NCBI GenBank assembly: GCA_963788925.1
Contig: CAWBIH010000002.1
Location: forward strand, 218,568 to 282,567
Reading direction: 5' to 3'
Origin: an uncultured Actinomycetota bacterium
GTDB taxonomy: Bacteria > Actinomycetota > UBA4738 > HRBIN12
Length of the DNA stretch: 64,000 nt
Of this stretch, positions 8,153 through 63,302 are shown piece after piece. The notes beneath the pieces were generated by a model. It was not told the DNA's origin. It searched no databases and saw only the letters and a program-made list of their open reading frames with translations. Position 1 is the stretch's first letter, and each line of letters opens with the position of its first letter. The position numbers were made by a program, and so were the translations under genes.

Positions 8153-8224
8153 AGCCGGAGATGGGATTCGAACCCATGACCTACCACTTACGAGGCGGTT
8201 GCTCTGCCACTGAGCTACTCCGGC
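8153..8224 (-). tRNA. tRNA-Thr (anticodon CGU)
   Basis: Reverse complement is GCCGGAGTAGCTCAGTGGCAGAGCAACCGCCTCGTAAGTGGTAGGTCATGGGTTCGAATCCCATCTCCGGCT. Cloverleaf folds with a 7-bp acceptor stem, D and T arms (GGGTTCGAATCCC), and anticodon loop CTCGTAA, giving anticodon CGT. Confidence 0.9.
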
Positions 8225-8339: not shown

Positions 8340-10448
8340 ATGGCATCCATCGACACCGACGCCGTGGGCCCGGTCCGCCGGGTGATGGTGGGCACCGATC
8401 GATCCGAAACCGCCACGAGAGCGGTCGAGTGGGCTGCCTCGTTCGCCGAGCGGTTCGGCGCCGAGCTCCACGTCGTGCAGGTGGTCGTCCCCCAGCACCC
8501 GGCCGACACGGAGTACGGCGCGGCCGAAGCGACGCGGGCGCACAGCGCCGCCGACGAGCTCCAGGTCTATACGACACAACTCGCGGGCGAGCGGGGACAC
8601 GCGCATGTGGTGATCGACGACGACCCCGCGATGGCGATCGTGCGCTCCTCCGAGGACCAGGCGGTCGACGTCCTGATCGTCGGGAACGCAGGGATGGCGG
8701 GCCGCAAGGAATTCCTCCTCGGGAACGTGCCGAACCGGATCAGCCACAACGCGCGCTGCACGGTGATCATCGTGAACACCACGAACGGCCAGACGACCGC
8801 GGTGCGGAACCCGTCCTCCGCCACCGCGATCCGTTCATCCCACGCGGAACCGGTGACCCGGCCGCATCTGGTCGCCCGCGGCACGAAGATCGGCGTCGTC
8901 TTCGCGAAGCACGGCCTGCGGGAGCTCTTCGGCCGACCCGACGAGGAGGGCATCGTGGGCCGGCGACGCCAGGCCAAACGACTCCGTACGGCATTGGAGG
9001 AGCTCGGTCCCACGTTCTGCAAGCTCGGTCAGATCCTTTCGACGCGGCCGGACCTGCTCCCGTCTGAGTTCATCGAAGAGCTCGCGACCTTGCAGGACAA
9101 CGTGCCCCCGCTCAGCGAGGCACAGGTCGTTTCGGTGATGGAGCAAGAGCTCGGCGTCCCCTGGGAGGACGTCTTCGAGACGATCGAACCGCACCCGCTC
9201 GCGGCCGGAACGATCGCCCAGGTTCACCGGGCGTCGCTCGCGACGGGAGAGAAGGTCGTGATCAAGATCCAGCGACCCGATGCGCGGGAGCTGATCGAGC
9301 AGGACCTCGCGCTGTTGGAGGTCTTCGCGGAGAAGGCATCGAAACGCCCCGGTCTGAAACTCGTCATCGACATGGAAGCGGTCTTCCAGCACCTGTCGGA
9401 CTCGCTCCAGCGAGAGCTGGACTTCCGACAGGAAGCCTCGAACATGCAGCGGATCGGTGAGGTGCTCGAACCCTTCCCGAGGCTCGCCGTGCCGGCGGTG
9501 CACCGTGACCTGTCCACCTCGCGGCTCCTGGTGATGCACGACGTGGGTGGGGGCCCGCTCGACTCGGCTCCTGAAGGCGCGCCGAGACAGGAGGCTGCCC
9601 GTCAGCTGCTCGAGTCCTTCTACAAGCAGATCATGGTCGACGGGTTCTTCCACGCCGACCCGCATCCAGGGAACCTGATGTGGCAGCCGCTGGAGGAGCG
9701 CCTGTACTTCCTCGACCTCGGGATGGTCGGCGAAGTCGGCGCCGACATGCGCGAACACCTGATGCTCCTCCTGATGGCGTTCTCTCAGGAGGACGTCGGA
9801 TTCCTGACGGACGTCACGCTGATGCTGGCGAACGCGATCGAGCGCAGCGACCTCGACGTGGACAAATTCCAGTCGGAGATCGGGGGGCTCATGGCTCGAT
9901 ACCGGACGTCCTCCCTGAAGGACATCCAACTCGGTCCGATCCTCCAGGAGATGACGGAGATCTCGCTCCGTTTCGGCGTGCCGCTGCCCGCATCGCTGGC
10001 GCTCACCGGCAAGGCCCTCGCGCAGATGCAGCTCGCGACCGCGCAACTCGATCCCGACCTGGATCCCTTCGAAGTGGCCGGCAAGTTCCTGATGCGCAGC
10101 CTGCTGCGCGGGATGGCCGGGCGGATCGATCCGAAGGCGGTCTTCTACCAGTCGCAGAAGCTGAAGGTGCGCGCGATGCGTGTCGTCGAGGCGATCGAGC
10201 GGATGATCGGCGCCCGGCCCGGTCAGAAGATGGAGATCAACTTCCGGGCGGCGCCGCTCGAGGCCACGGTGCGCCGGGCCGGGCGCCAGCTCGCGCTCGG
10301 TCTCACGGCGGGCGCGGCGATCCTCGCGAGCGGGCTGACCGCGATGTCGGCGCGGGTGCCCGGTTGGGTTCCGATCACGTTCGGCATCGTCGGCGGCGTG
10401 CTGACGTTCGGGTTGCTCCTGGACCTCTTCAACAACCGCAGCCGCTAG
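8340..10448 (+). CDS. universal stress protein domain fused to an ABC1/UbiB-family atypical protein kinase with C-terminal TM helices
   Basis: N-terminus has the USP ATP-binding signature (VGNAGMAGRKEFLLGNVPNRISH). The remainder shows ABC1/UbiB kinase motifs (EELGPTFCKLGQILSTRPDLLP, HADPHPGNL). Start taken at the in-frame ATG at 8340. Confidence 0.75.
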   Translation: MASIDTDAVGPVRRVMVGTDRSETATRAVEWAASFAERFGAELHVVQVVVPQHPADTEYGAAEATRAHSAADELQVYTTQLAGERGHAHVVIDDDPAMAIVRSSEDQAVDVLIVGNAGMAGRKEFLLGNVPNRISHNARCTVIIVNTTNGQTTAVRNPSSATAIRSSHAEPVTRPHLVARGTKIGVVFAKHGLRELFGRPDEEGIVGRRRQAKRLRTALEELGPTFCKLGQILSTRPDLLPSEFIEELATLQDNVPPLSEAQVVSVMEQELGVPWEDVFETIEPHPLAAGTIAQVHRASLATGEKVVIKIQRPDARELIEQDLALLEVFAEKASKRPGLKLVIDMEAVFQHLSDSLQRELDFRQEASNMQRIGEVLEPFPRLAVPAVHRDLSTSRLLVMHDVGGGPLDSAPEGAPRQEAARQLLESFYKQIMVDGFFHADPHPGNLMWQPLEERLYFLDLGMVGEVGADMREHLMLLLMAFSQEDVGFLTDVTLMLANAIERSDLDVDKFQSEIGGLMARYRTSSLKDIQLGPILQEMTEISLRFGVPLPASLALTGKALAQMQLATAQLDPDLDPFEVAGKFLMRSLLRGMAGRIDPKAVFYQSQKLKVRAMRVVEAIERMIGARPGQKMEINFRAAPLEATVRRAGRQLALGLTAGAAILASGLTAMSARVPGWVPITFGIVGGVLTFGLLLDLFNNRSR

Positions 10449-10870
10449 GCGGAGCCGGCGCTGTCGACGCGCTCCTGGACCTCGCGCAGTCGCTCGACGA
10501 CGCCGTGGAGGATCGCGACCGCGACGCTCGGGTTCTGGATCAGGAACGGGTCGAAGTAGATCGTCTCGATCACCAAGGCCTCCACCGGCTCCGCCGCCGT
10601 GACGCTCGCGGACCGGCGCGTGTGTCCGAGCAACGCCATCTCGCCGAAGAAGTCTCCGGGCGCGAGGTCGTGGACGGCGCCGCCGACCTCGACCTGCGCG
10701 GCACCCGACAGGATCACGAAGAGGCCGCCGCGGTCGGAGTCGCGCTCGACGAGCGCGTCGCCGGCCGCGTAGCTGCGTCGCTGACCGACCTTGGCGACAC
10801 GCGAGAGATCGTCGTCCGTCAGCTCCTCGAAGAAGCGGACCTTGCGGAGGGCCTCGACATCGCTCGTCAT
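10445..10870 (-). CDS. stand-alone cyclic-nucleotide-binding (CAP-effector) domain protein
   Basis: 141 aa with a canonical phosphate-binding cassette (FGEMALL ... RRSASVTA). Confidence 0.8.
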   Translation of the reverse strand: MTSDVEALRKVRFFEELTDDDLSRVAKVGQRRSYAAGDALVERDSDRGGLFVILSGAAQVEVGGAVHDLAPGDFFGEMALLGHTRRSASVTAAEPVEALVIETIYFDPFLIQNPSVAVAILHGVVERLREVQERVDSAGSA

Positions 10871-10885
10871 CTCATCTCCTCCCGA

Positions 10886-13232
10886 TCATCCTAATGAGAC
10901 GAGCTCCACGGCCTCGTCGCGGAGCTTCGCGGGGTCGGCCAGGCCGCCCGACCGGATGATGCCCATCGCATCCTGGACGTCGGCGGGACGGTCCACGGAG
11001 ACCACGGCCTGGACCCGGCCGTCGAGCATGTAGAAAGCGGCGAAGCTCCGCGACTCCAGGCTCCCGCGGATCACCAGGTCGTCCCACTCCCGGTGATACC
11101 CGGCGTACTGGATGGTGTGCTCGTACTGATCCGACCAGAACCAGTGGATCTCCTCGTACGGCGTGTCGCGGCCGAGCATGTTCAGGGCCGCGGCACGCCC
11201 CTGACGCCGCGCGTTGTCCCAGTGCTCGACCCGGATCCGGCGCCCGTAGATCGGGTGGTAGTGGTTGGCGACGTCGCCGGCGGCGAAGACGCCGTCGACG
11301 CTTGCCCGGCAGTGCTCGTCCACCACGACGCCGTCGTCCACCTCGATCCCCGATCCATCGAGGAAGCCGACCACCGGCTCCACACCGAGGCCGAGCACGG
11401 CGAAGTCGCACGACAGGCTGAGACCGCTCGCCGATCTCACCGTCCGGACGGCGGCCGTCCCCTTCGAAGCTCGCCACCTGATCATCGAACGTCATCTCGA
11501 CACCGTGATCACGATGGATGCCTTCGATCACGCGACCCACGTCCTCGCCCAGTACCCGGTCGAGGGGCGCCTTCCCGCCTGCGACGACGTGAACCTCGAG
11601 GCCTCGCTGCCGGAGCGATGCCGTCACCTCGGAGCCGATGAACCCCATCCCCGCCATCACGACCCGACGGCCCGGCAGCATCTCCGCGCGGATCGCGGCC
11701 GCATCGCCGAGCGTCCGCAGGTCGAGGACCCCTGCGAGGTCGATCCCCGGGATCGGGAAGCGCCGGTTGCGCGCACCGGTCGCGATCAGGAGCTTGTCGA
11801 AGGACACGGGATCGCCGCCCGCGACCGTGATCGTCTTCCCGGCGCCGTCCACGGCGACGACCGTCGTTCCGAACCGTGTCTCGATGCGGTTGTCGGCGTA
11901 GAACGCTTCGGGCCGGACCATGGCCTCCTGGATCGTCGACTCACCTCGGAGGAACGACTTCGAGAGCGGCGGCCGCTCGTAGGGGAACGTTGGCTCCGAC
12001 CCGATCAGCACGACCTCGCCGTCGAAGCCTTCCTCACGAAGGGTCGCGGCAGCCGTGGCTCCGGTGAGGCTCGCGCCCACGACGACATATCGTTCCTTCT
12101 TCGCGCCAGGATGGGTGTCCCGGCCGGCAGACGGCGCGGGAGATGGCGAGGCGGACACCTCCGCGCCTTCCGTCGCCGCTCGTTCTTCAGCCGGAGCCGT
12201 GCCTCCCACGCGTTCCAGTGGCTCGGCCGCGGGGCCGCGGACCACCGATCCGTCGAAGCCGAACCTCGAACCGTGGCACGGACAGTCCCAGGTCTTGGCG
12301 GAGTCGTTCCAGTCGACCGTGCAGCCCATGTGCGTGCAACGAGACGAGAGCTCGTACGTCTGGCCTCCCTCGTCGCGATAGACGGCGAGCTGCTGACCGT
12401 CGACGCTCACCAATCCCCCGTGGCCGGCCACGAGATCGTCCACCGAACGGTCCACGGTCTTCACGATCAAGACGTCCGAGGGCACCTCGTGGGCGACCTT
12501 GTTGGGCACGGATCCCAGGAACCGTCGAACGCCCGACATCCCCTTGTTCCCGACCACCACGAGCTGCACATCTTCCGACTCGGCCAGCTCGCAGATCCGC
12601 TGGGCGGGGTCTCCTTCGACGGTCCGCTTCTCGACCGTGACGTCCTCGGGTCGGGTCGAGGCGACCTCCTCGAGCTTGATGGCGCCGACCAGTGGATCGC
12701 CCACATGGACGAGCGTGACCGTGCCGGCGTAGACGGAGGCGAGCGTGTAGGCCTTGCGGACGGCTTCGGTCGCCGTCCCCGAGCCGTCCGTCCCCGCCAG
12801 GATCCGCATGTACGGCGGGGCGGGATCTCGCGGACCGGCGCGGCCGGTGGTGTCCACGATCAGGAGGTCGCAGGGCGCGTCATGCGCGATCCAGTCGGGC
12901 ACGCTGCCGAGTCGGAACCGGGTCGCCTGCCCCATGCCGCGGTTGCCGACGACGATCAGGTCGGCTCCGTGCTTGATCGCGGCCGCGAGGATGGATTCCC
13001 CGGGTGTCCCCTCGATCAATTCCGCGATCGCATCGACCTTCTTCGCACGCGCCGCCTCCGCCGCCTCGTAGAGGGCGGTCTGGAGCGGCTGCCGCGAGAT
13101 GCCGAAGGCGTCGAGCGCCCCGACGAGCACGAGGGTGCCGTGGAGACGTTTCGCGAGCTTCTGCGCCACCTCGACGGCGACCGACGCGGTCGGTGAGCCG
13201 TCGGTGCCGACGACGATCTTCCGGTAGGACAT
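10886..13232 (-). CDS. fusion of tandem universal stress protein domains, a Rieske [2Fe-2S] domain and an FAD/NAD(P)-dependent ferredoxin reductase, with a 1-nt frame break at the CCCC run 11459-11462
   Basis: One continuous 786-aa ORF holds two USP domains (VVGNRGMG..., VVGNKGMSG...), a Rieske CTHMGC...CPCHGS motif, and a reductase Rossmann start (VVVGASLTGATAA). The reductase C-terminus (GIEVDDGVVVDEHCRASVDGVFAAGDVANH) continues in ORF 10886..11485. Confidence 0.8.
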
Positions 13233-14030
13233 CTAGGCCGCCGCCTCCAGAGTGCCGTTCATCTGCGGATGGACGTCACATCGGAAGTAGTACGAGCCGG
13301 GATCGAGCGCCGGCACGTCATAGGTCACGGTCTCGGGGCCGTCGACGAGGTCGCCGACGAACAGCGACTCCGCCGCGGAGTCGTCCGTGTAGATCGCCAC
13401 GTTGTGCGGCACGCCATCGTCTTCGTTATCGAAGACCAGCCCGAACGCCTCGCCGGCCGGCGCGGTCAGGCGATCGCTCGAGAAGCTCTGGTCGTCGAAC
13501 GCGCACACCGTGACGGCCGCGTCCGGCGTAGGGGAACACTCGGCTTCCGTCCCACCGAACCCGAGCGTCGGCTTGAAGATCATCAGCCAGAGGATCGCGA
13601 GTAGGCCGACGAAGCCGACCGCCGCGATCGTGTACGGCCGCTTCGAATGGAGGATCTCCTCGAACTGCTCCTGGGAGACCGCCTCGGTTCCCCCCACCTT
13701 CGCAGCGGAGATCGTCCGCAGCCGCTTGGCCCATGTGGTTCCCATGGCGTACATCGCGGCGATGACCGCGACGAGGATCACGATCGCCGCCCAGATCCAC
13801 GCCTGCCCCCAGAAGTGACCCGTGAACCCGGCCAGGATCCCTCCCAGCAAGAGGAGGCCGATCGAGTTCCACATGAACCCGACCGAGGACGCCGAGAGCT
13901 CGAGCAGATGGCTCACCCGCGCCGGGTCGCGCTCCCTCGGGAGCCGCAGCGTCACGTACGCCGAAACGCCGTGCGCCATCAGGAAGCCGAACACGCCGGC
14001 GATGTGAAGGAACACCCACCATCGATGCAC
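13233..14030 (-). CDS. membrane-anchored cupredoxin (type-1 blue copper) protein
   Basis: Four N-terminal TM helices, then a plastocyanin/azurin-like domain. Candidate copper ligands are His (VPHNVAIY) and the Cys-x2-His-x2-Met in YYFRCDVHPQMNG. Its stop abuts the start of the USP-Rieske gene. Confidence 0.7.
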   Translation of the reverse strand: MHRWWVFLHIAGVFGFLMAHGVSAYVTLRLPRERDPARVSHLLELSASSVGFMWNSIGLLLLGGILAGFTGHFWGQAWIWAAIVILVAVIAAMYAMGTTWAKRLRTISAAKVGGTEAVSQEQFEEILHSKRPYTIAAVGFVGLLAILWLMIFKPTLGFGGTEAECSPTPDAAVTVCAFDDQSFSSDRLTAPAGEAFGLVFDNEDDGVPHNVAIYTDDSAAESLFVGDLVDGPETVTYDVPALDPGSYYFRCDVHPQMNGTLEAAA

Positions 14031-14033
14031 GGC

Positions 14034-14204
14034 CTACTCCTCCCCCACGGTGACGGCGGCGGCCGTCGACTCCGGCCTCGCCTGTTCCTTCTTCTTGATC
14101 TGGCGCATCACGAGACGCTCCAGCACGAACACGAGCACGGCCATGAAGACGCCGACGAGCCACCGCTCGAAGCGACGGAAAGGGGACCGTCCCTGAGACG
14201 TCAC
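14034..14204 (-). CDS. small single-TM protein (about 57 aa)
   Basis: GTG start at 14204 overlaps the upstream stop as GTGA. Has a hydrophobic helix (LVGVFMAVLVFVL) and a basic tail. A real CDS is uncertain. Confidence 0.4.
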   Translation of the reverse strand: MTSQGRSPFRRFERWLVGVFMAVLVFVLERLVMRQIKKKEQARPESTAAAVTVGEE

Positions 14205-14966
14205 CCGGTGGATGCCTCCCGCGCCGCTTCGACACGGGCGAGGAGCCAGAATCCGATGCCGGCGGCGACCGCCAGCCACGACCACCCGTTCGGCGGCGCG
14301 CCCGCGTAGCCGGCGAACACGAGGCCGGCCACACCGAAGAGGACCGCCGCGATCGACGCCGCCGTGCCCGCGAACTCCCAACCGACGCCGCGCAGAGACG
14401 TCGCGATCCCGGCACCTGCGATCGAGAGCGCGGCCACGGCGACACCCGACCAGTGGTGCATCTGGACGTGCGGGTCCGCGGCCGGTCCGTGCTGGAGCTC
14501 CGCCTCGGTCACCGCGTAGATCCAGGCCGGCATCGTCGCGATCACGGCATAGGTCATCAGCGCGATGCTCGGGTGTCCGGGGAGCCGGAGGAGCGACCGG
14601 GGATCTGGATGCAGCAGCAGCAAGACGATCACCCCGATCGGACCGGAGACGTAGAAGCCGGTCAGGAAGTCACCACCCATCAACCCGCCGATCGTCCACG
14701 CGATCGCCTGGGCGACGAGGACGTGGAAGGCAGACGTCCAGCCCGGTCGCACTGACCAGGGCGATCGAGAACACGCCGATCAGTCCCCCGCCGGCGAGAC
14801 CCGCGAGGTAGTGGAAACGATGGATCGTGTCGGAGAGATCGCCGGACACGATCGACAACAGGACGAGGAACAGCGAGTACCCGATCGTGAGCACTCCGAA
14901 GATCCAGCCGACGAGGCGGAAGGCCAGCCGCCCCCGAGATACGTCCGGTGTGTAGGTGGATCCCAT
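14201..14966 (-). CDS. polytopic integral membrane protein of unknown function, with a frame break near 14730-14760
   Basis: ORFs 14670..14966 and 14201..14752 are both strongly hydrophobic and consecutive, giving about 8 predicted TM segments. I do not recognise the family. Confidence 0.5.
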
Positions 14967-14990
14967 CTCCTCGATCGTTCCCTTCCGAGA

Positions 14991-17067
14991 TCAGGCAGCC
15001 GTGACCGGCACCCGGCCCGCTACCGTGGTGCCGCGGCCGGGTGCCGACCGGATCTCGAGAGAGCCTCCCACGGCTGCGAGCCGGTCGGCCATGCCCTGGA
15101 GGCCGGAGCCGGTGGCCACGGCGTCCGGGTCGAAGCCGCGGCCCTCGTCGACGACCTCGAACGAAAGGCTGCCGTTCGATTGCGACAGATGGATCACGGT
15201 GCGATCCGCGTCGGCGTACTTGGCAACGTTCTGGAGCGCCTCGAGGGCGCAGAAGTAGACGGTGGCCTCCACGTCGACGGAGTAACGGCCCACCGCGTCC
15301 GCCTCCACGCTCACGGGGACGGCAGCCTTCCTTGACTGCGCCTCGAGGGCTGCGACCAAACCACGATCGGCGAGCAGCGGAGGATAGATGCCACGGGCGA
15401 GATCCCTCAGGTCTTCCAGCGCCGTCTGGGTCTCCGTCTCGATCTGGATGAGCATCTCCGCGGTCTTCGCCGGATCGCGCTCCGTCAGTTGCCGGGCGAG
15501 CCGAGCCTTGACGGCGAGCGCGACGAGCTGCTGCTGGGCGCCGTCATGGATGTTGCGCTCCAGGCGACGCCGCTCCTCGTCCTGCGCAGCGACCAGACGC
15601 TGGCGTGAAGCCCGGAGGTCCTCCACGAGACGGACGTTGCGAAGCACGAGGCCCGCCTGGGCGGCGAGGTCGCGGACCAACTTCTCCTTCGTGGGATTCA
15701 TCGGGTCGGCAGCCGGCATGCGAACCGAAAGCGCCCCGAGGAGCTCCCCGCGATCGCGGACCTCGACGGCAGTTTCGCCCGGGACGCTCCACACCTCCCC
15801 GTCGGTGGTGGGGACAGCACCGATGACGGTCGCGTCTTCAGGCCAGGCGGCCGCCTGGCGAAGCTCGCGTCCAGCCCGTAACCACACGCGGGCCACCTCC
15901 GCGCCGGCGCCCTCGCCGAGTACCTGGGCCATCCGAGGCAGCACGTCCTCGGTCGCGTAGGACGTCCCCACGCGCTCGGAGAACTCCGTCAGCACCTCGT
16001 ACGGCGTGGCACGCCGGCCGTAGACGAACCGATCGACCACCTTGCGGGCGATGCGCATGACGGGTCGGAAGGCGATCCCGAGCAGGAGCGCGATGACGAA
16101 CAGGGATCCGGGACTTTGGCGGTCGGCGGCCGCAACGCCGAACAACGCGACCGCGCCCCCGTACACCGCGAGTGCCAACACCACGAGTGCTCCGGCGACG
16201 AGCGCCTTCTTCACCACGACATCCAGGTCCCACAGGCGGTACTGCAAGATCGCGATCCCGACGGTCAAAGGGATTCCGAGGAAGGCCAGGCCCGAGATGA
16301 ACTCGCCCACACCTCCCTCCGAGATGCCGAGGCCCTCGAGGATCGCGCTGATCACGAAGTAGGTGGCGAGCACGACGACCGCGAACGCGAACCATTTGAG
16401 CTGCTGTCGCTCGACGCCGCTCGACCGGCGGAATCGGATGACCATCGACGTGGCCGCCGCCGCGAAGAGGCCGAGGAGCACCGGCCAGAGCACGTTCCCG
16501 ATGGATTCGATCTCCAGCCCGGGGATATGCAGTGGGTTCGCGACCGTGATCGTTGGACCGACGTCACCGAGCTCGAACGTGGCTGTCCCGAACCCGATCG
16601 TGACGAACGCGAGGATCGAGATGCCGACACCCGCCCAGGCGAGCCACCGCCAGCGAGGTGACGGCAGCTCTCCGTTGGGGAAGACCAGGGGGAGGAGGAT
16701 CAACAGCGGGAAGAGCCCGAGGGCCCAGAGCGCGTTGCCCGGCCAGGCGAGCCACGACGCGAGAGCGGGCTCGCCTTGTGTGGCCGCGTAGATCGACGCC
16801 TCGCCGGTCGTGAAGGCCGCGCCCACCGTGATCGCGACCCAGAGGAGCAGCCATCCGATCCGATTGTCCGGTGCCCGGCTCAAGCTCAGGGCGCCGACGA
16901 CGCCCATCCCCATGAACGCGGTGAAGTTCGTGGAATCGCCGAGGAGCGAGTCATCCGTTCAGTGACACGAGGACCAGGCCGATCGCCGCGAAGCCAGCCG
17001 TGACCCAGAGCACGATCCAGGGCCATCGAGACGGCCGCGACGTCGGTGTCGCCGTAGTCGCGGCCAT
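14991..17067 (-). CDS. membrane sensor histidine kinase (multi-TM sensor - GAF-like - HisKA_3 - HATPase_c), paralogue 1, with a frame break near 16950-16980
   Basis: HisKA_3 motif (ERNIHDGAQQQLVAL) and HATPase G-boxes. The N-terminus (PSRWPWIVLWVTAGFAAIGLVLV) matches the paralogues at 19710 and 21839 but lies in another frame. The start ATG at 17067 shares one base with the upstream stop (TGATG). Confidence 0.8.
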
Positions 17068-18353
17068 CACGCGCCGCCCCCCAGGATCCGGAAGACTTCA
17101 ACAGGCTCTTCGCGGCCTTTGACGAGACGGGGACCGATCGACTCGGCGGCGACCGAGGGCGCCGCTGAGACGGTCGAGGCCGCGGCGACGACCTCGCCGC
17201 CCTTGGCCTCGGATTGGAGACGCTGCGCGACGTTGACGGCGTCGCCGATCACCGTGTACTCGAGTCGGCCGCCGCCGCCGATCGCGCCGGCCATGACGAT
17301 CCCGGTGTTCAGCCCGATCCCGACGTGAAGTCCGTCGACCGCCTCGGTCCCCCACCCCATCGAGTTGAGCTCGCGCTGGCGATCCTGCATGGCGAGCGCG
17401 CACTGCAGCGCCCGCTCGGCATGATCCGAAGACGGCTCCGGAGCACCGAAGACGGCCATCACGGCGTCGCCCTGGAACTTGTCGATCGTGCCGCCGTGCT
17501 CGGAGATCACCTCGGCCATCGCGCCGAGGTGACGTCCGACGATCTCGCCGATCTCCCGAGCCGTGAGTCGCTCCGCGATCGTGGAGAAGCCACGGATGTC
17601 GCTGAACAGGACGGTCACCTCGAGCTCGCGCTGGCTCGCGGCGTCACCGCCGCGAGCCAGCGCGTCCACGAACTGCGACGGCACGTAGGACTTGAGCGAC
17701 GTCGCCGTGGCCGACTGCTCGACGACCGCCGCGTGCAGCTTCTTGAACTCCCCCAGCAGGCCGGTGCCGGCTCCGCCGTCACCGGCCATCCGCCGGAAGA
17801 GCATCGTCACGCGCCCGTCCACGGCCTCTTGGGTCGTGCCCAGGGCGGCCGCCATCGCCTCGTAGCCGAGACCCTGAGCCATCATGTCGAGCACGATGCG
17901 GTCCTCCTCCTGGGACTCGGCCCGCCCCGACAGACGTTCGGCGATCGTGGGATCGACGACGCTCCCGCCGCTCTGCACTTCCCGGATCGCACGGGCGAGC
18001 TCGTCGCCCTGCGCGATCCGGTCCTTCAGCAGGTACGCGAGCCCGCTGTGTCCCTTGCCGAGCAGCGCGATCGCGTACTCCTCGTCGTCGTGCGCCGAAA
18101 GCACCACCACGCCCGTATCCGGGTGACGCTCGCGGATCGCGTGGGCGCAGTCGATCCCCTCGAGCTGGAAGGAGGGCGGCATCTTGATGTCGGTCACGAC
18201 GACGTCGGGGCTGTGCTCCGCCGCCGTCGCCAGGAGTGTCGGTGCATCCTCCGCGACCCCGACGACCTCGATGTCGTCATAGGAGTTCAGGAGCGCCCGG
18301 ACGCCCTCACGCACGAGGACGTTGTCCTCCCCGAGCACCACTCTGATCGTCAC
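17067..18353 (-). CDS. response-regulator receiver - LuxR-like HTH - class III adenylate/guanylate cyclase fusion
   Basis: GTG start at 18353. The REC domain has the phosphoacceptor context VVVTDIKMP. The HTH-like segment is DRIVLDMMAQGLGYEAMAAALGTTQEAV. The C-terminal cyclase homology domain includes VLFSDIRGFS, KFQGDAVMAVFGAP and IGLNTG. Confidence 0.75.
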   Translation of the reverse strand: MTIRVVLGEDNVLVREGVRALLNSYDDIEVVGVAEDAPTLLATAAEHSPDVVVTDIKMPPSFQLEGIDCAHAIRERHPDTGVVVLSAHDDEEYAIALLGKGHSGLAYLLKDRIAQGDELARAIREVQSGGSVVDPTIAERLSGRAESQEEDRIVLDMMAQGLGYEAMAAALGTTQEAVDGRVTMLFRRMAGDGGAGTGLLGEFKKLHAAVVEQSATATSLKSYVPSQFVDALARGGDAASQRELEVTVLFSDIRGFSTIAERLTAREIGEIVGRHLGAMAEVISEHGGTIDKFQGDAVMAVFGAPEPSSDHAERALQCALAMQDRQRELNSMGWGTEAVDGLHVGIGLNTGIVMAGAIGGGGRLEYTVIGDAVNVAQRLQSEAKGGEVVAAASTVSAAPSVAAESIGPRLVKGREEPVEVFRILGGGA

Positions 18354-18391: not shown

Positions 18392-19058
18392 ATGCCGCTG
18401 CGGGTGGTCTTCGCCGAGGATAACTACCTCGTGCGGGAAGGAACCGCCGCCCTCCTCGCGACCGCCGACGAGGTCGAGATCGTGGGCACGGCGGCAAGCC
18501 TCGATGAGCTGCTCTCCGCGGTCGACGAGCACGGACCCGACGCCGTGCTCACCGATATCCGGATGCCGCCCAGCGGGACCGACGAGGGGATCCGGGGTGC
18601 CAAGCAGATCCGCGCGTCGCACCCGGACATCGGGGTCGTCGTGCTGTCGCAGTTCGCGGAGGAGGAATACGCGTACGACCTGCTGAAGGACGGAGCGGCC
18701 GGCCTCGGCTACCTGTTGAAGGAGCGCGTGGCCGACGTCGAGGAGCTGGTGCGGGCGCTGACGGAGGTGGCCCGCGGTGGCAGCGTCCTCGATCCCGAAG
18801 ATCGTCGAGGCGCTCGTCGCCGCGAAGGAGCACCTCGCGCATTCGCCGCTCGCCAGGCTGACCGACCGGGAGCGCGAGGTGCTCGGCCACATGGCCCAGG
18901 GGCAGAACAACGCCGCCATCGCGAAGTCGCTCTTCCTCACCGAGCGCGCGGTCGAGAAGCACATCAACTCGCTGTTCCACAAGCTGGGACTGACCGAGGA
19001 GCCCGACGTGCACCGCCGGGTGATGGCGGTGCTCGCCTTCCTCCGCGATCAGTCGTAG
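18392..19058 (+). CDS. NarL/LuxR-family response regulator, with a frame break near 18790-18800 at a CCC run
   Basis: REC domain (MPLRVVFAEDNYLVREG...VLTDIRMP...), then a LuxR HTH (LTDREREVLGHMAQGQNNAAIAKSLFLTERAVEKHINSLFHKL) in the next frame. Transcribed divergently from the cyclase gene. Confidence 0.8.
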
Positions 19059-19099
19059 CGCGGCCACTCGTCGCGCCCGCAACCGGCCACCGTGCATCG

Positions 19100-19507
19100 T
19101 CACTGCGCTTTCCGCGTATCGACGATGTAGACGCTGCAGGGGGCGTGCCGGAGCACGAGGTTGGGAACGCTTTCGCGGACGTGCCACCGGGATCCCTGGG
19201 TCCCCCGGTTCCCGAGCACGATCGTCTCGGCCATGACCTCCGCCGCGACATCGCAGATCCGAGACGCCGCGTCCCCGTCCTCGATCCGAGTCTTGACCGA
19301 TGTTCCCGGGAAGCGCGCGGCCAGTCGCTGCAGGTGCGCTCGCGGATCTGCCGCCCGGTCCGGGTCGACGACCGCCCGGATGTCGCCCTCCGGCTTCACA
19401 TACAGCACCAGCAGCTCGGCGCCGCGCTCGCGCGCGAGTCGCGCCGCGTCCTCGACCGCGAGATCCGCGGCCGCCGAGGTGTCTGTTCCCACCAGGATCG
19501 TTGTCAT
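19100..19507 (-). CDS. universal stress protein (UspA family)
   Basis: 135 aa with USP fold motifs (ILVGTDTS..., LGNRGTQGSRWHVRESVPNLVLRHAPCSVYIV). Confidence 0.8.
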   Translation of the reverse strand: MTTILVGTDTSAAADLAVEDAARLARERGAELLVLYVKPEGDIRAVVDPDRAADPRAHLQRLAARFPGTSVKTRIEDGDAASRICDVAAEVMAETIVLGNRGTQGSRWHVRESVPNLVLRHAPCSVYIVDTRKAQ

Positions 19508-19709
19508 CGTGGGCCTCCTTCGTTCGTCACCGCGACGCTACGCCGCCGACCCGAGCCCGACGACGGCGCCCGCATGCCGAGTTCGGCAGGGTGCCAGCAC
19601 CCCGGTCCGAGGGGTGTTCGAGGACGCGGAACCGCAGGTCGGCCCCATTGGCCCGCGGAGCGCCGGGTGGGACGATTCGGTTCGATATGGACGGACCGAA
19701 GGCGATCAC

Positions 19710-21842
19710 GTGAGCTTGCCGGCGACGCAGGCCCGGCTCGATCAGCCCAGATCGCGCTGGCCGTGGCTGCTCTGCGCGCTCGCGGTGCTCCTGGTGCTCG
19801 CGGCGATCACGCTCTACGTCATCGGCGGACCCGGCGACCAGGCTTCGACGGACACCCTCGTGTTCCTGCCTGTGGTCCTCCTCACCATCCTGGGCTACTC
19901 GACCGTCGGGGCGATCCTCGCCTCGAGGAACACGAGGAACCCGATGGGCTGGATCATGTTGACGGTCGGTCTTGCCTTCGCCCTCGCACAGGCGACGGAG
20001 ACCTACGCCAAGTACACCCTGGAGATCGATCCCGGCGTCCTCCCGTTCGGTGCGGTCGCCGCCTGGTTCGGGACCTGGGACTACGCCGTCGCGTTCTGCG
20101 CGCTTCTGGTTCTCGCCCAGCTGTATCCCTCGGGCCGTGTCCTCAGCCCCCGCTGGCGGAAAGTGCCATGGATCGTGGTGGCGGCCGCATCCGTCGCATC
20201 GGTGGGAACGGCGTTGGGTCCGGGAACGCTCGAGGTCGAGACCGGGTTCGCGGTCGATAACCCCTTCGGGCTCGAGGCGATCCGTCCGATCGTCGAGATC
20301 ACCGGTGGGATCGGATGGATCGTTCTGCTCGCCTCGGTGCCGGTCTCGATCGCGTCGCTCGTGCTGCGCTTCCGCCGCTCGGAGGGCGAATCGAGGCAAC
20401 AGATCCGATGGCTCGCCTTCATCGCCGTCGCGGTGGTCGCATCCCTCCTGCTTGCCGCCGCGGCCGTGATCGTCTTCGGAGAGCGATTCGACCGATCCAT
20501 CGGTCCAGAGGTGTTCTTCGGCGTGATCTTCTCGCTCATCGGCGTGGGCGTGCCGGCGGCGATGGGTGTCGCGGTCCTGAAGTACCGCCTCTACGACCTC
20601 GACCTCGTGATCAAGAAGACGATCGTGTTCGCGATCCTGGTCCTGCTGCTGCTCGCCCTCGTGGGCGTCGGCGCCCTGCTGCTCGGCGGCACGCTGGTGC
20701 CGTCGCTCTCCGACCGGCCCCCGCTGCTCGTCGTGTTCGGAGTCGTGTTCGGGCTGCTCGTCATCCCGGCGTACCGGCTGGCGCGCAGGATCGCGGATCG
20801 CGTGGTCTACGGCGGTCGAGCGTCTCCCTACGAAGTCCTTTCCGAGTTCTCCGAACGGGCGAGCGAGACGTACTCGACCGAGGACGTGCTGCCGCGGATG
20901 GCGCAGCTGATCGGCCAGGCCACGGGCGCGGACGCAGCGAGGGTGTGGCTCAAGGTCGGCTCCGAGCTGCGCCCGGCGGCCGCCTGGCCGGCCGAGGCGA
21001 TCGGGACACGATCGCTGCCTTCTCGTGACGGCGAGCTGCCCGACTTCGAGGACACGGCCGTCGAGATCCGCCACCAAGGTGAGCTGCTCGGTGCCCTCAC
21101 GCTCGAGATGCGCGCGAGCGATCCGATGAATCCGTCGAAAGAGCGGATCGTCCGTGACCTTGCCTCGCAGACCGGCCTCGTGCTTCGGAACGTGCGCCTC
21201 ATCGAAGAGCTCCGAGAGTCCCGGCGCAGGATCGTCACGGCGCAGGACGAGCGCGCCAGGAAGCTCGAACGCAACATCCACGACGGCGCACAACAGCAGC
21301 TGGTCGCGCTGGCCGTGAAGGTCGGGCTCGTCGAACGCCTCGTACAGGCCGACGCGCAGAAGGCCGTGGCGATGCTCGGCGAGGTGAAGAGCGAAGCCAA
21401 CGACGCGCTCGAGAACCTCCGAGATCTCGCGCGAGGGATCTACCCGCCGCTGCTCGCCGACCAGGGCCTCGCCGCGGCGCTGGGCGCGCAGGCTCGGAAG
21501 GTGTCGATCCCGGTCGCCGTCGAGCCGGACGGGATCGGCCGCTATCCGGAAGAGACGGAGGCGGCGGTGTATTTCTCCTGCCTCGAAGCCCTGCAGAACA
21601 TCACGAAGTACGCGGGCGCGTCGAGGGTGACCGTGCGGCTCGCTCAGGCCGACGGCACCCTTACGTTCGAGGTGAGCGACGACGGCCGAGGCTTCGACCC
21701 GGGCGTCGTCGGACACGGCACGGGTCTCCAGGGGATCGCCGACCGCCTCGCCTCGCTCGGCGGCGAGCTCGAGGTCAGGTCGGCGATCGGCGACGGCACG
21801 ACCGTTGCCGGACGCCTCCCGGTCCGTGGGGAAAGCCCATGA
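19710..21842 (+). CDS. membrane sensor histidine kinase (multi-TM - GAF-like - HisKA_3 - HATPase_c), paralogue 2
   Basis: GTG start at 19710 preceded by a GAAGG ribosome-binding site. The track ORF from 19161 overlaps the antisense usp gene and is too long. The GAF/HisKA_3/ATPase region is highly similar to the kinases at 14991 and 21839. Confidence 0.85.
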   Translation: MSLPATQARLDQPRSRWPWLLCALAVLLVLAAITLYVIGGPGDQASTDTLVFLPVVLLTILGYSTVGAILASRNTRNPMGWIMLTVGLAFALAQATETYAKYTLEIDPGVLPFGAVAAWFGTWDYAVAFCALLVLAQLYPSGRVLSPRWRKVPWIVVAAASVASVGTALGPGTLEVETGFAVDNPFGLEAIRPIVEITGGIGWIVLLASVPVSIASLVLRFRRSEGESRQQIRWLAFIAVAVVASLLLAAAAVIVFGERFDRSIGPEVFFGVIFSLIGVGVPAAMGVAVLKYRLYDLDLVIKKTIVFAILVLLLLALVGVGALLLGGTLVPSLSDRPPLLVVFGVVFGLLVIPAYRLARRIADRVVYGGRASPYEVLSEFSERASETYSTEDVLPRMAQLIGQATGADAARVWLKVGSELRPAAAWPAEAIGTRSLPSRDGELPDFEDTAVEIRHQGELLGALTLEMRASDPMNPSKERIVRDLASQTGLVLRNVRLIEELRESRRRIVTAQDERARKLERNIHDGAQQQLVALAVKVGLVERLVQADAQKAVAMLGEVKSEANDALENLRDLARGIYPPLLADQGLAAALGAQARKVSIPVAVEPDGIGRYPEETEAAVYFSCLEALQNITKYAGASRVTVRLAQADGTLTFEVSDDGRGFDPGVVGHGTGLQGIADRLASLGGELEVRSAIGDGTTVAGRLPVRGESP

Positions 21843-23920
21843 ATCAGCGGCGTCTCGCCTGGACGATCTGGGGCGTCTCGGTCGCGTTCCTCATCGCGTG
21901 GTTGATCGTGGACGCGTCGAGCACGCCGGTCGACATCGGCGAGTACGCCTTCGTCGTGTTCGCGGTGCTCCTGTACTCGACCGTCGGAGTACTGATCACG
22001 TCGCGACAGCCGGCGAACCGCGTCGGCCTGTTGTTCGCCTGGGTCGGGCTCTCCGCGTCCATCAGTGGCCTGGCGGGCTCGTACGCCGTCATGGCCCAGC
22101 AGCGGGACCTGCCTTTCCTCGCCGCGTCGGCATGGGTCGGGCGGGTCGGGTTCGTCGCGATGTTCGGTCCGCTCGCGTTCCTCTTCCTCATCTTCCCCAC
22201 CGGCCGGCCACTGTCCCGCCGCTGGGGCTGGCTCATGAAGGCGATGATGGTCGGCTTCGCCATCACGCTGATCGGGTTCGCGTTCACTCCCGGATCCCTC
22301 ACCGCCGGGTTCGCCGAACTGCCGCGCCCGGTCGCGAACCCGATCGGGTTCCCGATCTCCTGGAAGCCGGCGATGGAGGCGGTCACGACAGCAGCCGGTT
22401 TCCTCGTGTTCGTCGGTGCGCTGCTGTCCGTCGTCTGCCTGATCCAGCGCTACCGTCGCGCCGCGCAGCTCGAGCGGCAGCAGATCAGATGGCTGGCGTT
22501 CCTCGGTGTGTTCCTCGGGGTCATCTTGTTGATCTCCATGGGGCTGTTCTCCACCGGCATCGTCAGCGACGACAGCGTCGCCTCGGGCGTCGCCTTCTTC
22601 ACCTTCATCTTCGGCGTGTTCCTCGGCATCCCGGCGGTGTGCGGCCTCGCGATCCTGCGGCACGGCCTGTGGGACCTCGACGTCGTGGTCCGGAAGACCG
22701 TGCAGTACGGACTCCTCGTCGCCGGGTTCGTGCTTGTCCTGGGGGTCGTCGTCTTCCTGGCGCCGCTCATGTTCATCGGCGTGGGAGGCAGCGTCGATGT
22801 GCCGACGCTCGTGGTCGCAGCCCTCCTCGCGGTCGGGTTCACGTTGGTGCGGTCCCGGGCGCGCCGTTGGGCGAATCGGATCGTCTACGGCAAGCGATCG
22901 ACCCCGTACGAGGTCCTCTCCGAGTTCGCCGAACGCGTAGGAGGTACGTACTCAACGGAGGACGTCCTCCCGCGGATGGCCCAGCTCCTCGGTGAAGCGA
23001 CCGGCGCGCGGGAGGCTCGGGTCTGGCTGCGCATCGGCAACGAGATGCGGGCGGATGCATCCTGGCCTCTCGATGCCGCGCAGACCCGGAACGTGCCGGC
23101 CCGGGCAGACGAGCTCCCAGACTTCGGTGACGACGTTGCATTCGAAGTGAGGCACCAGGGCGAGCTGCTCGGTGCGCTCACCGTTTCCGTGGCGGCCAAC
23201 GACCCGATGAACCCGACGAAGGAGAAGCTCGCGCGCGATATGGCCGCACAGGCGGGCCTGGTGCTCAGGAACGTCCGCCTGATCGAGGACCTTCGGGAAT
23301 CGCGCCGCCGGATCGTCAGCGCGCAGGACGAGCGAGCCCGCGCGCTGGAGCGGAACATCCACGACGGCGCGCAGCAACAGCTCGTGGCCCTCTCGGTGAA
23401 GCTCCGCCTCGCGACCGGGTTCGTCGAACGCGACCCGGCGAAGGCCAGGGCCATGTTGGAGGAGCTGCAGGGCCAGACGACGGAGACGCTGGAGGACCTC
23501 CGCGATCTCGCTCGAGGGATCTACCCGCCGCTGCTCGCCGACAAGGGTCTTCCAGCCGCGTTGGAAGCCCAGGCGAGGAAGTCGCCCGTTCCCGTGACCG
23601 TGCAACCCGACGGTGTGGGCCGCTACCGCCAAGATGTCGAGTCGGCCGTCTACTTCTGTTGTCTCGAGGCGCTCAACAATGTCGCGAAGTACGCCGACGC
23701 GTCCTCCGTCGAGATCCGCCTGCAGCAGAGCGACGGCGAGCTTCGTTTCCAGGTGGCGGACGACGGGCGCGGATTCGACACCGCGGCCATGAGTGACGGC
23801 ACCGGTCTCCAGGGGATGGCCGACCGCCTCGACGCGATCGGAGGGATGTTCGAGATCGTGAGCGTCCCCGGGGCCGGCACCACCGTGACGGGCCGGCTTG
23901 CGGTGCTGGAGGCCGGTTAG
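21839..23920 (+). CDS. membrane sensor histidine kinase, paralogue 3
   Basis: 693 aa with the same architecture. Its ATG overlaps the stop of the previous kinase as ATGA, indicating tandem duplication with translational coupling. Confidence 0.85.
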   Translation: MNQRRLAWTIWGVSVAFLIAWLIVDASSTPVDIGEYAFVVFAVLLYSTVGVLITSRQPANRVGLLFAWVGLSASISGLAGSYAVMAQQRDLPFLAASAWVGRVGFVAMFGPLAFLFLIFPTGRPLSRRWGWLMKAMMVGFAITLIGFAFTPGSLTAGFAELPRPVANPIGFPISWKPAMEAVTTAAGFLVFVGALLSVVCLIQRYRRAAQLERQQIRWLAFLGVFLGVILLISMGLFSTGIVSDDSVASGVAFFTFIFGVFLGIPAVCGLAILRHGLWDLDVVVRKTVQYGLLVAGFVLVLGVVVFLAPLMFIGVGGSVDVPTLVVAALLAVGFTLVRSRARRWANRIVYGKRSTPYEVLSEFAERVGGTYSTEDVLPRMAQLLGEATGAREARVWLRIGNEMRADASWPLDAAQTRNVPARADELPDFGDDVAFEVRHQGELLGALTVSVAANDPMNPTKEKLARDMAAQAGLVLRNVRLIEDLRESRRRIVSAQDERARALERNIHDGAQQQLVALSVKLRLATGFVERDPAKARAMLEELQGQTTETLEDLRDLARGIYPPLLADKGLPAALEAQARKSPVPVTVQPDGVGRYRQDVESAVYFCCLEALNNVAKYADASSVEIRLQQSDGELRFQVADDGRGFDTAAMSDGTGLQGMADRLDAIGGMFEIVSVPGAGTTVTGRLAVLEAG

Positions 23921-23927
23921 ACCTGCC

Positions 23928-24305
23928 TCAGGCGGCGCCGCGCGCGGCGGCCCACGCCTCTTCCAGCCGGTCGGGGCCGAAGGCCGACTTGGGGATGTAG
24001 GCGGCCGCGCCGCACTCCGCGGCGCGCGGCGCGTACTCCTCTTCTTCATACGTCGACAGGAGCAACACGACGGAGCTGTTCGCGTTGTCGGCGAGGATCT
24101 GGCGAGTGGCGTCGAGCCCGTTGATCCCCGGCAGGTTCACGTCCATCAGGACGAGATCCGGCGTGAGATCGGACGCCATCGTCACGGAATCCTCACCGGT
24201 CTCGGCTTCGCCCACGACTTCGAAGCCCTCCGTGGCATCGACCACCATCCTGGCCGCCATCCGGAAGGGCTCCTGATCGTCCACGATGAGAACCCGCACC
24301 GTCAT
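23928..24305 (-). CDS. single-domain response regulator (REC only)
   Basis: Start at MTVRVLIVDDQ. Has the conserved Asp context (LVLMDVNLP) and no output domain. Convergent with kinase 3. Confidence 0.75.
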   Translation of the reverse strand: MTVRVLIVDDQEPFRMAARMVVDATEGFEVVGEAETGEDSVTMASDLTPDLVLMDVNLPGINGLDATRQILADNANSSVVLLLSTYEEEEYAPRAAECGAAAYIPKSAFGPDRLEEAWAAARGAA

Positions 24306-24388
24306 CCGTTCCTCCACACGCAAGCGTCCCACCGACGGCTGCATGCGCCAGGGGTGCCAGCACCACAGTTGTCGTCCCCCGAGCGACC

Positions 24389-62786: not shown

Positions 62787-63302
62787 ATGGACACGTACAT
62801 GGTGGTGCTGCGGATCGTGCACATCCTGGCCGGCGTCTTCTGGGTCGGGGCCGCGTTGACCGTGATCCTGTTCATCCAACCGACGGCGAGTGAGGTCGGG
62901 CCGGCGGCCGGACCGTTCATGTCTCACCTGGCCGGTAACAAGCGCCTCGTCGACTTCGTGCTGGGCGCGGCGGGCCTCACCATCCTCGCGGGGCTCCTGA
63001 TGTATTGGCGGGTCTCGGGTGGCCTGGATCCCGACTGGATCGGATCGACGTACGGCCTCACCATCACCGTGGGTGCGCTGTGCGGGATCGCTGCGGTGGC
63101 GATCGCCGGCTCGGTGGTCCGACCGGGGATCATGGCGACGCTCGCGATCGGGCGTGAGGTCGCCGCAAGCGGCGGTCCTCCCACGCCGGAACAGGCGGCA
63201 CGGCTCCAGGCGATCCAGCACCGCTCGCACGTCGCCGGCAGGGTGATCGTCCCGCTGTTGATCGTGGCCGTCGCCGCGATGGCTGCAGCGCGTTACCTGT
63301 AA
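62787..63302 (+). CDS. 4-TM membrane protein of unknown function
   Basis: 171 aa, hydrophobic, no recognisable catalytic motif. Confidence 0.45.
   Translation: MDTYMVVLRIVHILAGVFWVGAALTVILFIQPTASEVGPAAGPFMSHLAGNKRLVDFVLGAAGLTILAGLLMYWRVSGGLDPDWIGSTYGLTITVGALCGIAAVAIAGSVVRPGIMATLAIGREVAASGGPPTPEQAARLQAIQHRSHVAGRVIVPLLIVAVAAMAAARYL

Follow-up and report, generated by a model that had tools for sequence, protein, structure and literature searches.

We analysed a stretch of 64,000 nucleotides (the window, to which all coordinates without a locus name refer) from contig CAWBIH010000002.1 of an uncultured Actinomycetota bacterium, with a GC content of 69%. Seven co-directional genes lie on its minus strand between 10445 and 18353, and they encode, from the upstream to the downstream end, a response-regulator adenylate cyclase, a sensor histidine kinase, two membrane proteins, a membrane-bound copper protein, a fusion of two universal stress protein (USP) domains with a Rieske domain and a ferredoxin reductase, and a stand-alone cyclic-nucleotide-binding (CNB) protein. 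A preliminary description of this DNA had presented the genes as a head-to-tail operon whose parts may form one circuit that ties cyclic AMP (cAMP) to redox functions. Here the string is compared with the loci of relatives, which are designated by L-numbers (L001, L168, etc.).

Organisation of the seven genes

The cyclase gene (17067..18353, minus strand, as are all seven) encodes a protein of 428 residues recognised by its Pfam domains and catalytic residues, and its TGA stop codon has one base in common with the ATG of the kinase gene (TGATG at 17069-17065). The kinase, identified by Pfam, is a polytopic membrane protein of about 692 residues once its frame, broken near 16953, is repaired (14991..17067). 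A 24-nt gap, between 14991 and 14966, separates it from the gene of a membrane protein of a 254-255-residue family (14201..14966), which is read as two fragments of open reading frame (ORF) with a +1 insertion at 14752. This gene runs through a GTGA overlap (14204-14201) into that of a 56-residue single-pass membrane protein with a GTG start (14034..14204), homologues of which are found in L169 and L170. After a gap of 3 nt, the GTG at 14030 opens the gene for a protein that, according to Pfam and the family alignment, combines a DUF2269-type four-helix domain with a type-1 copper cupredoxin (13233..14030). Its stop codon abuts the start of the fusion gene (TAG followed by ATG, at 13233/13232), whose product of about 781 residues (10886..13232) was assigned by Pfam on both of its fragments, with a +1 insertion at 11449. 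The string ends with the gene of the 141-residue CNB protein (10445..10870, Pfam cNMP_binding), whose ATG at 10870 comes after a 15-nt gap that includes GGGAGGAG. The ORF reading of this region bears out the head-to-tail arrangement of the preliminary description, and every junction quoted there proved exact when re-read from the sequence.

The domain composition proposed for the string was also compared with profile hidden Markov models. Response_reg, Guanylate_cyc, HisKA_3, HATPase_c, Cupredoxin_1, Usp (twice), Rieske, Pyr_redox_2, Reductase_C and cNMP_binding all exceed their Pfam gathering scores. Nearly all of the domain calls stand, the exceptions being GerE, which was undetected in the cyclase, and Copper-bind (PF00127), which matches weakly (E 0.04). 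None of the seven proteins receives an equivalog-level name from NCBIfam, in which the top matches, MctR and MctS, lie far below their cut-offs.

Interrupted reading frames

Three of the seven frames are interrupted in the window, a feature absent from the preliminary description: those of the kinase, the 254-255-residue-family protein and the fusion. As written, the kinase consists of a 640-residue ORF and an upstream fragment, and the fusion enters out-of-frame sequence after FEGDG, with the Pyr_redox_2 profile split at the break into positions 2-214 and 217-291 on two fragments. In a tblastn comparison with the intact orthologue of L002 (693 residues), the kinase is matched in one frame over 17055-16954 and in another over 16952-14997. 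The breaks at 14752 and 11449, which are those of the operon within the reach of L168, a 95%-identical short-read contig, are uncompensated +1 insertions in the DNA alignment to that contig, and the same alignment reveals the same type of insertion in tilS (5893) and twice in ftsH (3943 and 3783). Upstream of the cyclase, the frame of a divergent GerE regulator gene is broken near 18795, where tblastn with the L002 orthologue finds two frames at 96-100% identity. These seven sites (3783, 3943, 5893, 11449, 14752, ~16953 and ~18795) fall within 24 kb, the insertion rate is roughly one per 3 kb, and none of the sites lies in a homopolymer run.

The kinase is intact in L001, L002, L008, L169 and L170, and damage of the same kind as in the window is found in L007, a related long-read assembly. 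Because ftsH and tilS are hit too, which the organism could not survive as a true loss, and because the genes of relatives are all intact, the comparison identifies the breaks as assembly errors. Pseudogenes and programmed frameshifts were ruled out on the same grounds and because the insertions are unconserved. Gene models taken from this window require frameshift-aware translation.

A DUF2269-type membrane domain joined to a cupredoxin

The protein previously described only as a membrane cupredoxin has a second domain at its N-terminus that had been overlooked. Its residues 1-155 match DUF2269 (PF10027) over profile positions 5-150 with 27.5 bits, just short of the cut-off of 28, and among the 50 family members in the alignment 43 match this profile, the best at E 1.4e-11. 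An exhaustive search returned 710 cluster representatives of this domain, mostly stand-alone proteins of 150-170 residues, and DUF2269 is mentioned only in passing in the literature searched. His9, His20, Gly21, Trp78 and Met150 show no variation across the alignment of 50 sequences and are conserved in at least 89% of 135 representatives, while Phe16, Gly64, Met93 and Pro154 are about 90% conserved.

The AlphaFold2 model (predicted local distance difference test, pLDDT, 93.7) consists of four long helices followed by a beta-sandwich. The latter corresponds to the cupredoxin domain (residues ~173-265), with its ligands in PHNV (His) and CDVHPQM (Cys, His and Met). This full His-Cys-His-Met type-1 set is conserved in all cupredoxin-bearing members of the family, and the fold is closest to that of auracyanin, a membrane-anchored electron carrier.

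Two lines of evidence bear on the orientation of the protein in the membrane. Lys and Arg residues are concentrated in loops 1 and 3 (means of 4.8 and 6.0) relative to the N-terminus and loop 2 (0.7 and 0.45), and in one family member, P0358, a Ser/Thr-rich linker and a c-type cytochrome (CASCH) stand in the place of the cupredoxin. Haem c is attached only outside the cytoplasm. Because of the charge bias of the loops and the cytochrome c of P0358, the C-terminal domain is placed outside, and the cupredoxin is predicted to be extracytoplasmic in an N-out/C-out topology.

As for the four-helix domain, we infer that it is an electron relay. Weak matches to the UPF0093/HemJ profile were obtained for 7 of the 50 family members (best E 0.0035), and helix 1 contains an invariant His. 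HemJ (UPF0093) is a dimeric b-type haem membrane protein (PMC13564367), and in PuuD a membrane domain distantly similar to DUF2269, DUF989, is joined to a cytochrome c domain (PMC4562309). With these weak HemJ matches and the PuuD precedent, our best guess is that the cofactor of DUF2269 is probably haem b. From their places in the helices, His9 (helix 1) and Met150 (helix 4) would be close to the outer side of the membrane, and His20 and Met93 (helix 3) close to its inner side. Two His/Met sites would fit such a placement, as would bis-His haems if the protein forms a dimer.

Another ORF of the window (62787-63299, plus strand) encodes a 171-residue membrane protein whose first helix, HILAGVFWVG, resembles that of DUF2269. 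It was rejected as a relative, with no relationship found by hhalign and no Pfam match.

A cytoplasmic USP-USP-Rieske-reductase fusion

The two Usp stretches of the fusion score 166 bits in total. The first domain has the exact G-x2-G-x9-G-(S/T) nucleotide motif, GNRGMGQATRFRLGS, and in the second the motif is one residue shorter, GNKGMSGVRRFLGS. The Rieske domain (50 bits) has the signature CTHMGC...CPCHGS, in which Cys299, His301, Cys317 and His320, together with Cys304 and Cys319 of the disulfide type, are invariant across 13 diverse homologues; it resembles the b6f-type PetC and has its best scores with PetC models. The reductase part consists of Pyr_redox_2, with an embedded NAD-binding Pyr_redox, and Reductase_C, and over the last 400 residues the alignments with ArR (3lxd), PdR (1q1r), TodA (3ef6) and BphA4 extend from end to end (E 1e-50 to 1e-74). 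The scores stay below the NCBIfam equivalog cut-offs for both AndAa and HcaD, which indicates that the reductase is neither of these enzymes.

Since it has neither a signal peptide nor a transmembrane segment, the fusion is assigned to the cytoplasm. This bears on the electron path from NAD(P)H through FAD and the Rieske centre to copper that the preliminary description had proposed: a direct step from the Rieske centre to type-1 copper is topologically unlikely. With the Rieske centre in the cytoplasm and the cupredoxin outside, this step would cross the membrane, and the DUF2269 domain would therefore have to act as relay.

The USP Rv1636 can bind cAMP, and its class has been reported only from Mycobacterium, Corynebacterium and Nocardia (PMC11107214). 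Equivalents of the residues that contact cAMP in Rv1636, Gly10 and Gly113, are present in the USP domains of the fusion and are also common to ATP-binding USPs. The glycine motif is classed as the ATP type, and cAMP binding by these domains is not inferable from sequence.

The signalling cassette

The receiver of the cyclase (Response_reg, 64 bits) has its phospho-acceptor, Asp55, in VTDIKMP and the conserved Lys in YLLK. The catalytic domain (Guanylate_cyc, 90.3 bits against a cut-off of 21.9) covers residues 240-417 and contains the metal-binding residues Asp252 (FSDIRGF) and Asp296, and the substrate pair Lys292 (DKFQGDA) and Thr367; Asn373 and Arg377, in YTVIGDAVNVAQRL, complete the six catalytic residues of class III. 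By an established rule, Lys with either Asp or Thr is the adenine-type substrate pair in class III cyclases. The phospho-regulated cyclase of the preliminary description is upheld by the intact receiver Asp, the six class III residues and the adenine-type pair, and the predicted enzyme should make cAMP once phosphorylated. The closest solved catalytic domains are those of Cya2 (2w01) and CyaB (3r5g).

Between receiver and catalytic domain, Pfam GerE has no match in the cyclase at E <= 0.01. Over residues 1-189 the cyclase shares 48% identity with the GerE regulator encoded next to it, and residues 1-190 resemble NarL and DevR of Mycobacterium tuberculosis, with DevR (3c3w) aligned over residues 3-189; the NCBIfam and PDB alignments (NarL, DevR and MctR) reach residue ~190, through the helix-turn-helix (HTH) region. 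Because both the identity and the NarL/DevR alignment span the HTH, we read the cyclase as a whole NarL-type regulator with a decayed HTH placed ahead of a cyclase domain.

In the kinase, HisKA_3 (54.4 bits) and HATPase_c (39.7 bits) are both above their cut-offs, and GAF is weak. The 56-residue protein belongs with the kinase and not with the cupredoxin: homologues of 65-70 residues directly follow the kinase in L169 (13361-13573) and L170 (13370-13567), where their start overlaps the kinase stop by 1 nt and 4 nt, respectively, and where the redox genes are absent. This small protein is a conserved accessory of the kinase cassette. The 254-255-residue-family protein has the conserved His-rich motifs HRFHY, HPDPRS and DPHV..HHWSG in the alignment of intact orthologues and has no match in Pfam or NCBIfam. 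It occurs only in the clade with the full seven-gene string and is absent from L169, L170, L003 and L005.

Conservation of the string and of its parts

A search with the repaired fusion protein gave 531 homologues at E <= 1e-10; most of the best 120 are full-length (764-789 residues), and every named source is an uncultured Actinomycetota genome or metagenome. Where the fusion is at least 82% identical, all seven genes are found intact and in the same order in L001 and L002, followed by a convergent gene for a USP-ABC1 kinase. The order is the same in L008 and L168 as far as these contigs reach (both are cut at the contig start) and in L007, whose genes are broken, and in L009 it is kept from the 56-residue gene onward. 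Given its recurrence in L001, L002, L007, L008 and L168, the arrangement is not a product of chance.

At greater distances, the string separates into its parts. With the fusion at 57-63% identity, L003-L006 and L010 have only the cupredoxin gene and the fusion, in unrelated neighbourhoods, and L099, of the same group, also has the cNMP-binding gene. In L169 and L170, whose cyclase is 76-79% identical, the locus is the same as that of the window, with the USP, the GerE regulator, the divergent cyclase, the kinase and the 65-70-residue protein, and it continues with the convergent USP-ABC1 gene and then Zincin_2, tilS and hpt, while the 254-255-residue-family protein, the cupredoxin, the fusion and the cNMP gene are lacking. 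Because the cassette (L169 and L170) and the redox genes (L003-L006 and L010) each occur apart, the string is best described as a composite of a signalling cassette, a redox block with the cNMP gene, and the clade-only membrane protein; the gene-neighbourhood comparison of these loci does not sustain the earlier view of the seven genes as one co-conserved unit.

More distant relatives were recovered by scans of species-representative genomes and metagenomes. In these, the tandem-USP-Rieske protein is about 340-350 residues long and has no reductase, and its neighbour is a four-helix membrane protein of 155-175 residues without cupredoxin. The two genes, referred to here as the DUF2269/USP2-Rieske pair, are adjacent in every family locus with enough flank, and they occur in three orientations: on one strand in either order, and convergent. 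This variety of orientations in an adjacent pair points to selection for proximity. The pair is the oldest unit of the string. The cupredoxin and the reductase are both present in 14 loci (about six lineages) and both missing from at least 22, with no discordant case; in L011 the reductase is a separate neighbouring gene.

Two further gene arrangements were observed near members of the family. One belongs to the clade whose fusion is ~60% identical: there, the gene of a conserved two-helix membrane protein of 98-101 residues overlaps the start of the cupredoxin gene (L005 8914-9210 and L097 4843-5148); this gene comes after a phosphoribosyltransferase gene, and its product has no Pfam match and is unrelated to the 56-residue protein. 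In the cupredoxin-less loci L014, L015, L088-L090 and L092, an operon of a CNB gene and the DUF2269 gene, with a convergent USP2-Rieske gene, is always flanked by metH, for a methionine synthase of ~1220 residues, and on the other side by a conserved gene of ~610-640 residues.

The cyclic-nucleotide-binding protein and the link to cAMP

The 141-residue protein matches cNMP_binding with 58.4 bits against a cut-off of 27.5 and has no output domain. Its FGEMAL/RRSASV cassette is intact, as reported before, with FGEMAL at residue 75 and RRSASV at residue 85, and its closest solved relatives are the CNB domains of PKG/PKA and MloK1.

Counting CNB genes, whether orthologues or paralogues, within one or two genes of the DUF2269/USP2-Rieske pair, we found four arrangements: in the clade of the window, the CNB gene is downstream and co-directional; in L099, an orthologue with 60% identity lies upstream and is divergent; in the six metH-flanked loci (L014, L015, L088-L090 and L092), the CNB gene overlaps the stand-alone DUF2269 gene at its start; and in L011 it is, or directly follows, a major facilitator superfamily gene. 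In L020, a different class III cyclase is encoded 88 bp after the pair, and cyclases are thus found beside it in two arrangements. Across 0.44 Mb of family loci the CNB profile has 14 strong matches, each of them next to the pair, and none at E <= 1 in 1.41 Mb of other fetched loci, a comparison made with a narrow profile and with a taxonomically mixed background, mostly of other phyla. Many family loci have no CNB gene within the available flanks. These observations make cAMP control of the redox module plausible, not universal. Of the single cAMP-redox circuit proposed in the preliminary description, the tie between cAMP and redox is retained, through the CNB gene beside the pair in four arrangements, and the single seven-gene unit is not, in view of L169 and L170.

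Flanking genes

The GerE regulator is a NarL/GerE-type response regulator (18392..19058, plus strand, located by tblastn) and a paralogue of the cyclase N-terminus. It starts ~38 bp from the cyclase start, in divergent orientation, and intact orthologues of 221-222 residues are found in L001, L002, L169 and L170. On the other side, a gene for a USP-ABC1/UbiB-like atypical kinase fusion with two C-terminal transmembrane helices (8340..10448, plus strand; Pfam Usp and ABC1) converges on the string; it is present in L001, L002, L007-L009, L168, L169 and L170, being kept beside the signalling cassette with or without the redox block.

The GerE regulator is part of an upstream signalling cluster (18392-24344) that is conserved in relatives and recalls the mycobacterial USP-DevR-DevS layout. 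The cluster also includes a 135-residue USP (19100-19507, minus strand), two paralogous polytopic HisKA_3 kinases (~19749-21842 and 21839-23920, plus strand) that share 47-50% identity with the kinase of the operon, and a receiver-only protein (23928-24344, minus strand). The only Rfam match is a tRNA (8153-8224, minus strand, 71.8 bits) between the USP-ABC1 gene and a downstream hypothetical gene.

Proposed mechanism and alternative explanations

The explanation that we prefer, to which we give about an even chance, is a composite operon in which a cyclase layer driven by a membrane signal is combined with a redox layer for outward electron transfer that has its own cAMP receptor. In the first layer, the polytopic HisKA_3 kinase, with its small single-pass partner, would phosphorylate Asp55 of the cyclase, and the phosphorylated class III enzyme would turn the membrane signal into cAMP. 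The second layer would be a redox module inserted behind the cassette, on the same strand and with no intergenic space. Its ancient core, the four-helix DUF2269 protein working with the cytoplasmic tandem-USP-Rieske protein, would have gained, in the lineage of the window, the NAD(P)H/FAD reductase inside and the type-1 copper cupredoxin outside. Electrons would flow from NAD(P)H to FAD, the Rieske [2Fe-2S] centre, the DUF2269 cofactor (probably haem b) and type-1 copper, and from there to an extracytoplasmic acceptor, and the flow would be switched by ATP on the USP domains and by the cAMP-bound 141-residue CNB protein. In this scheme, the order of the genes, the identity of the domains, the ligand residues, the patterns of conservation and the predicted topology come from the sequences themselves, and we infer the DUF2269 cofactor, the direction of flow, the acceptor, the action of the CNB protein on the module and the local cyclase as the source of cAMP. 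Thermodynamics favours the outward direction, from NAD(P)H to copper, and not the reverse. Our confidence in the mechanism, that of a cytoplasm-fed transmembrane electron conduit under second-messenger control, is moderate.

Several points weigh against this explanation. The passage of electrons from NAD(P)H to a high-potential Rieske centre and then to copper would dissipate a large amount of free energy, and a physiological acceptor is not apparent. The background used for the CNB profile was a mixed one, and the profile is narrow. The co-occurrence of cupredoxin and reductase may reflect a single event, their bearers looking like one clade. The promoter and terminator scan gave nothing above the shuffled expectation, being uninformative for an actinobacterium with a GC content of 69%. 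Finally, the cassette occurs without the redox block (L169 and L170) and the redox pair occurs where no signalling gene lies close by (L003-L006, L010 and most of the loci without cupredoxin), and therefore the cyclase is not dedicated to the redox module by descent.

This last point leads to the strongest of the alternatives, a juxtaposition without a dedicated circuit, in which a redox/CNB block came to lie behind an older cassette, cAMP forms a cell-wide pool, and the tight spacing reflects genome compaction. L169 and L170, which keep the USP, GerE regulator, cyclase, kinase, small membrane protein and USP-ABC1 genes and lack the other four, are as it would predict, and so are the fusion relatives at 57-63% identity in neighbourhoods without cyclase or kinase; the cyclase family is also more conserved and more widely spread, with 77% identity at rank 120 against 57-59% for the fusion. 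On the other hand, all members of the clade have the inserted genes on a single strand with no gap longer than 24 nt, the CNB gene accompanies the pair in other arrangements, and in L020 a different cyclase directly follows the pair, so that some cAMP control of the module is likely whatever its source. We consider mere juxtaposition somewhat unlikely.

It is less probable still, and in our view clearly unlikely, that the DUF2269/USP2-Rieske pair is a sensor of redox or energy state and not a conduit. The pair would then report the redox/ATP state of the cytoplasm to a membrane partner, with the CNB protein integrating cAMP and the reductase and cupredoxin only setting the redox state of the cluster. 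USP domains are known as regulatory nucleotide binders (PMC11107214), the ancestral pair has no obvious electron donor or acceptor domain, and the locus is rich in signalling genes (three HisKA_3 kinases, two NarL-type receivers and further USP proteins), all of which would agree with sensing. However, two different electron carriers, a type-1 cupredoxin and a cytochrome c, are fused to the outer end of DUF2269, and a complete NAD(P)H-ferredoxin reductase is joined to the inner partner, which is the signature of a through-going chain, while no output domain such as a kinase or an HTH is attached to the pair.

A role in metal handling, with DUF2269 as a CopD-like path for copper or iron, the cupredoxin as a metal oxidase or chaperone of the EfeO/FtrB type, and the Rieske-reductase receiving or supplying an electron as FtrD does in FtrABCD, is very improbable, since all cupredoxin-bearing members have the full type-1 electron-transfer ligand set, a cytochrome c can stand in for the cupredoxin, the Pfam families listed at E <= 1 include neither CopD nor any other family of metal transport, and electrons from type-1 copper cannot reduce NAD(P)+ without an input of energy.

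Comparison with known systems

The transfer of electrons from NAD(P)H to FAD and on to a [2Fe-2S] cluster is the established function of the ferredoxin reductase family, and the reductase domains (Pyr_redox_2 and Reductase_C) align end to end with reductases that are paired with Rieske ferredoxins in oxygenase systems (BphA4/BphA3, TodA/TodB, putidaredoxin reductase and ArR). Unlike in the oxygenase systems, no oxygenase is encoded nearby, the Rieske signature is of the bc1/b6f type and not that of oxygenase ferredoxins, two USP domains precede the Rieske domain, and a membrane protein is the partner that is conserved. A further likeness would be to the AIFM3 type of Rieske-reductase fusion. 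Carriers of the auracyanin/amicyanin type have a lipid or single-helix anchor, whereas here the anchor is a four-helix domain with invariant His and Met residues, and the coupling is to a cytoplasmic Rieske-flavoprotein and not to a respiratory complex. PuuD (DUF989 and cytochrome c) and HemJ/PgdH2 are alike in that a small polytopic domain is joined to, or works with, an extracytoplasmic electron carrier, but the similarities to PuuD and HemJ lie at or below significance and no genes of urate or porphyrin pathways are found near the string.

In the ferric reductases of the NOX/FRE group, in MsrQ with Fre and in Ndh2-EetAB-PplA of Listeria, electrons pass from NAD(P)H through flavin and a membrane cofactor to an outside acceptor. 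The likeness to these systems is one of proposed logic only, without homologous parts: here a Rieske centre stands between a flavoprotein of the glutathione-reductase type and DUF2269 in the membrane.

On the signalling side, the mycobacterial DosR/DevR-DosS/T locus with the USP Rv3134c is similar in its clustering of NarL-type regulators, HisKA_3 kinases with GAF-like regions and USP genes, but here the kinases are polytopic membrane proteins and one regulator has exchanged DNA binding for a cyclase. As in response regulators with a class III cyclase output and in cyclases of the CyaB type, a receiver would control a homodimeric class III cyclase; here it belongs to a complete NarL-type regulator with a decayed HTH, and a paralogous DNA-binding sibling is encoded next door. 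No system of the composition of the whole string was found in the literature searched, in agreement with the preliminary description; the search gave nothing on USP, Rieske and cupredoxin together, nor on HemJ with CopD.

Implications

The most informative result of this comparison is not the seven-gene string but the strictly linked DUF2269/USP2-Rieske pair, which is previously undescribed in the literature searched. The DUF2269 and tandem-USP-Rieske proteins have so far had no assigned function, and the adjacency of their genes, together with the paired gain of an inner reductase and an outer carrier, offers a testable hypothesis for both: they may constitute a new transmembrane electron route in abundant uncultured Actinomycetota of soil and sediment. 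A bolder and rather doubtful extension is that DUF2269 is a new family of small membrane cytochromes forming, in these Actinomycetota, a cAMP/ATP-switched electron exporter fed by NAD(P)H. If this were true, two His/Met sites, one at each face of the membrane, would wire the cytoplasmic Rieske centre to an outside cupredoxin or cytochrome c, and the system would be the first cyclic-nucleotide-gated transmembrane electron-transfer chain.

The recurrence of a cAMP receptor beside the pair also provides a way into two questions: which processes the many stand-alone CNB proteins and cyclases of Actinomycetota control, and how USP domains influence a given partner protein. Should the link be confirmed, electron transport itself would join transcription and acetylation among the processes under second-messenger control.

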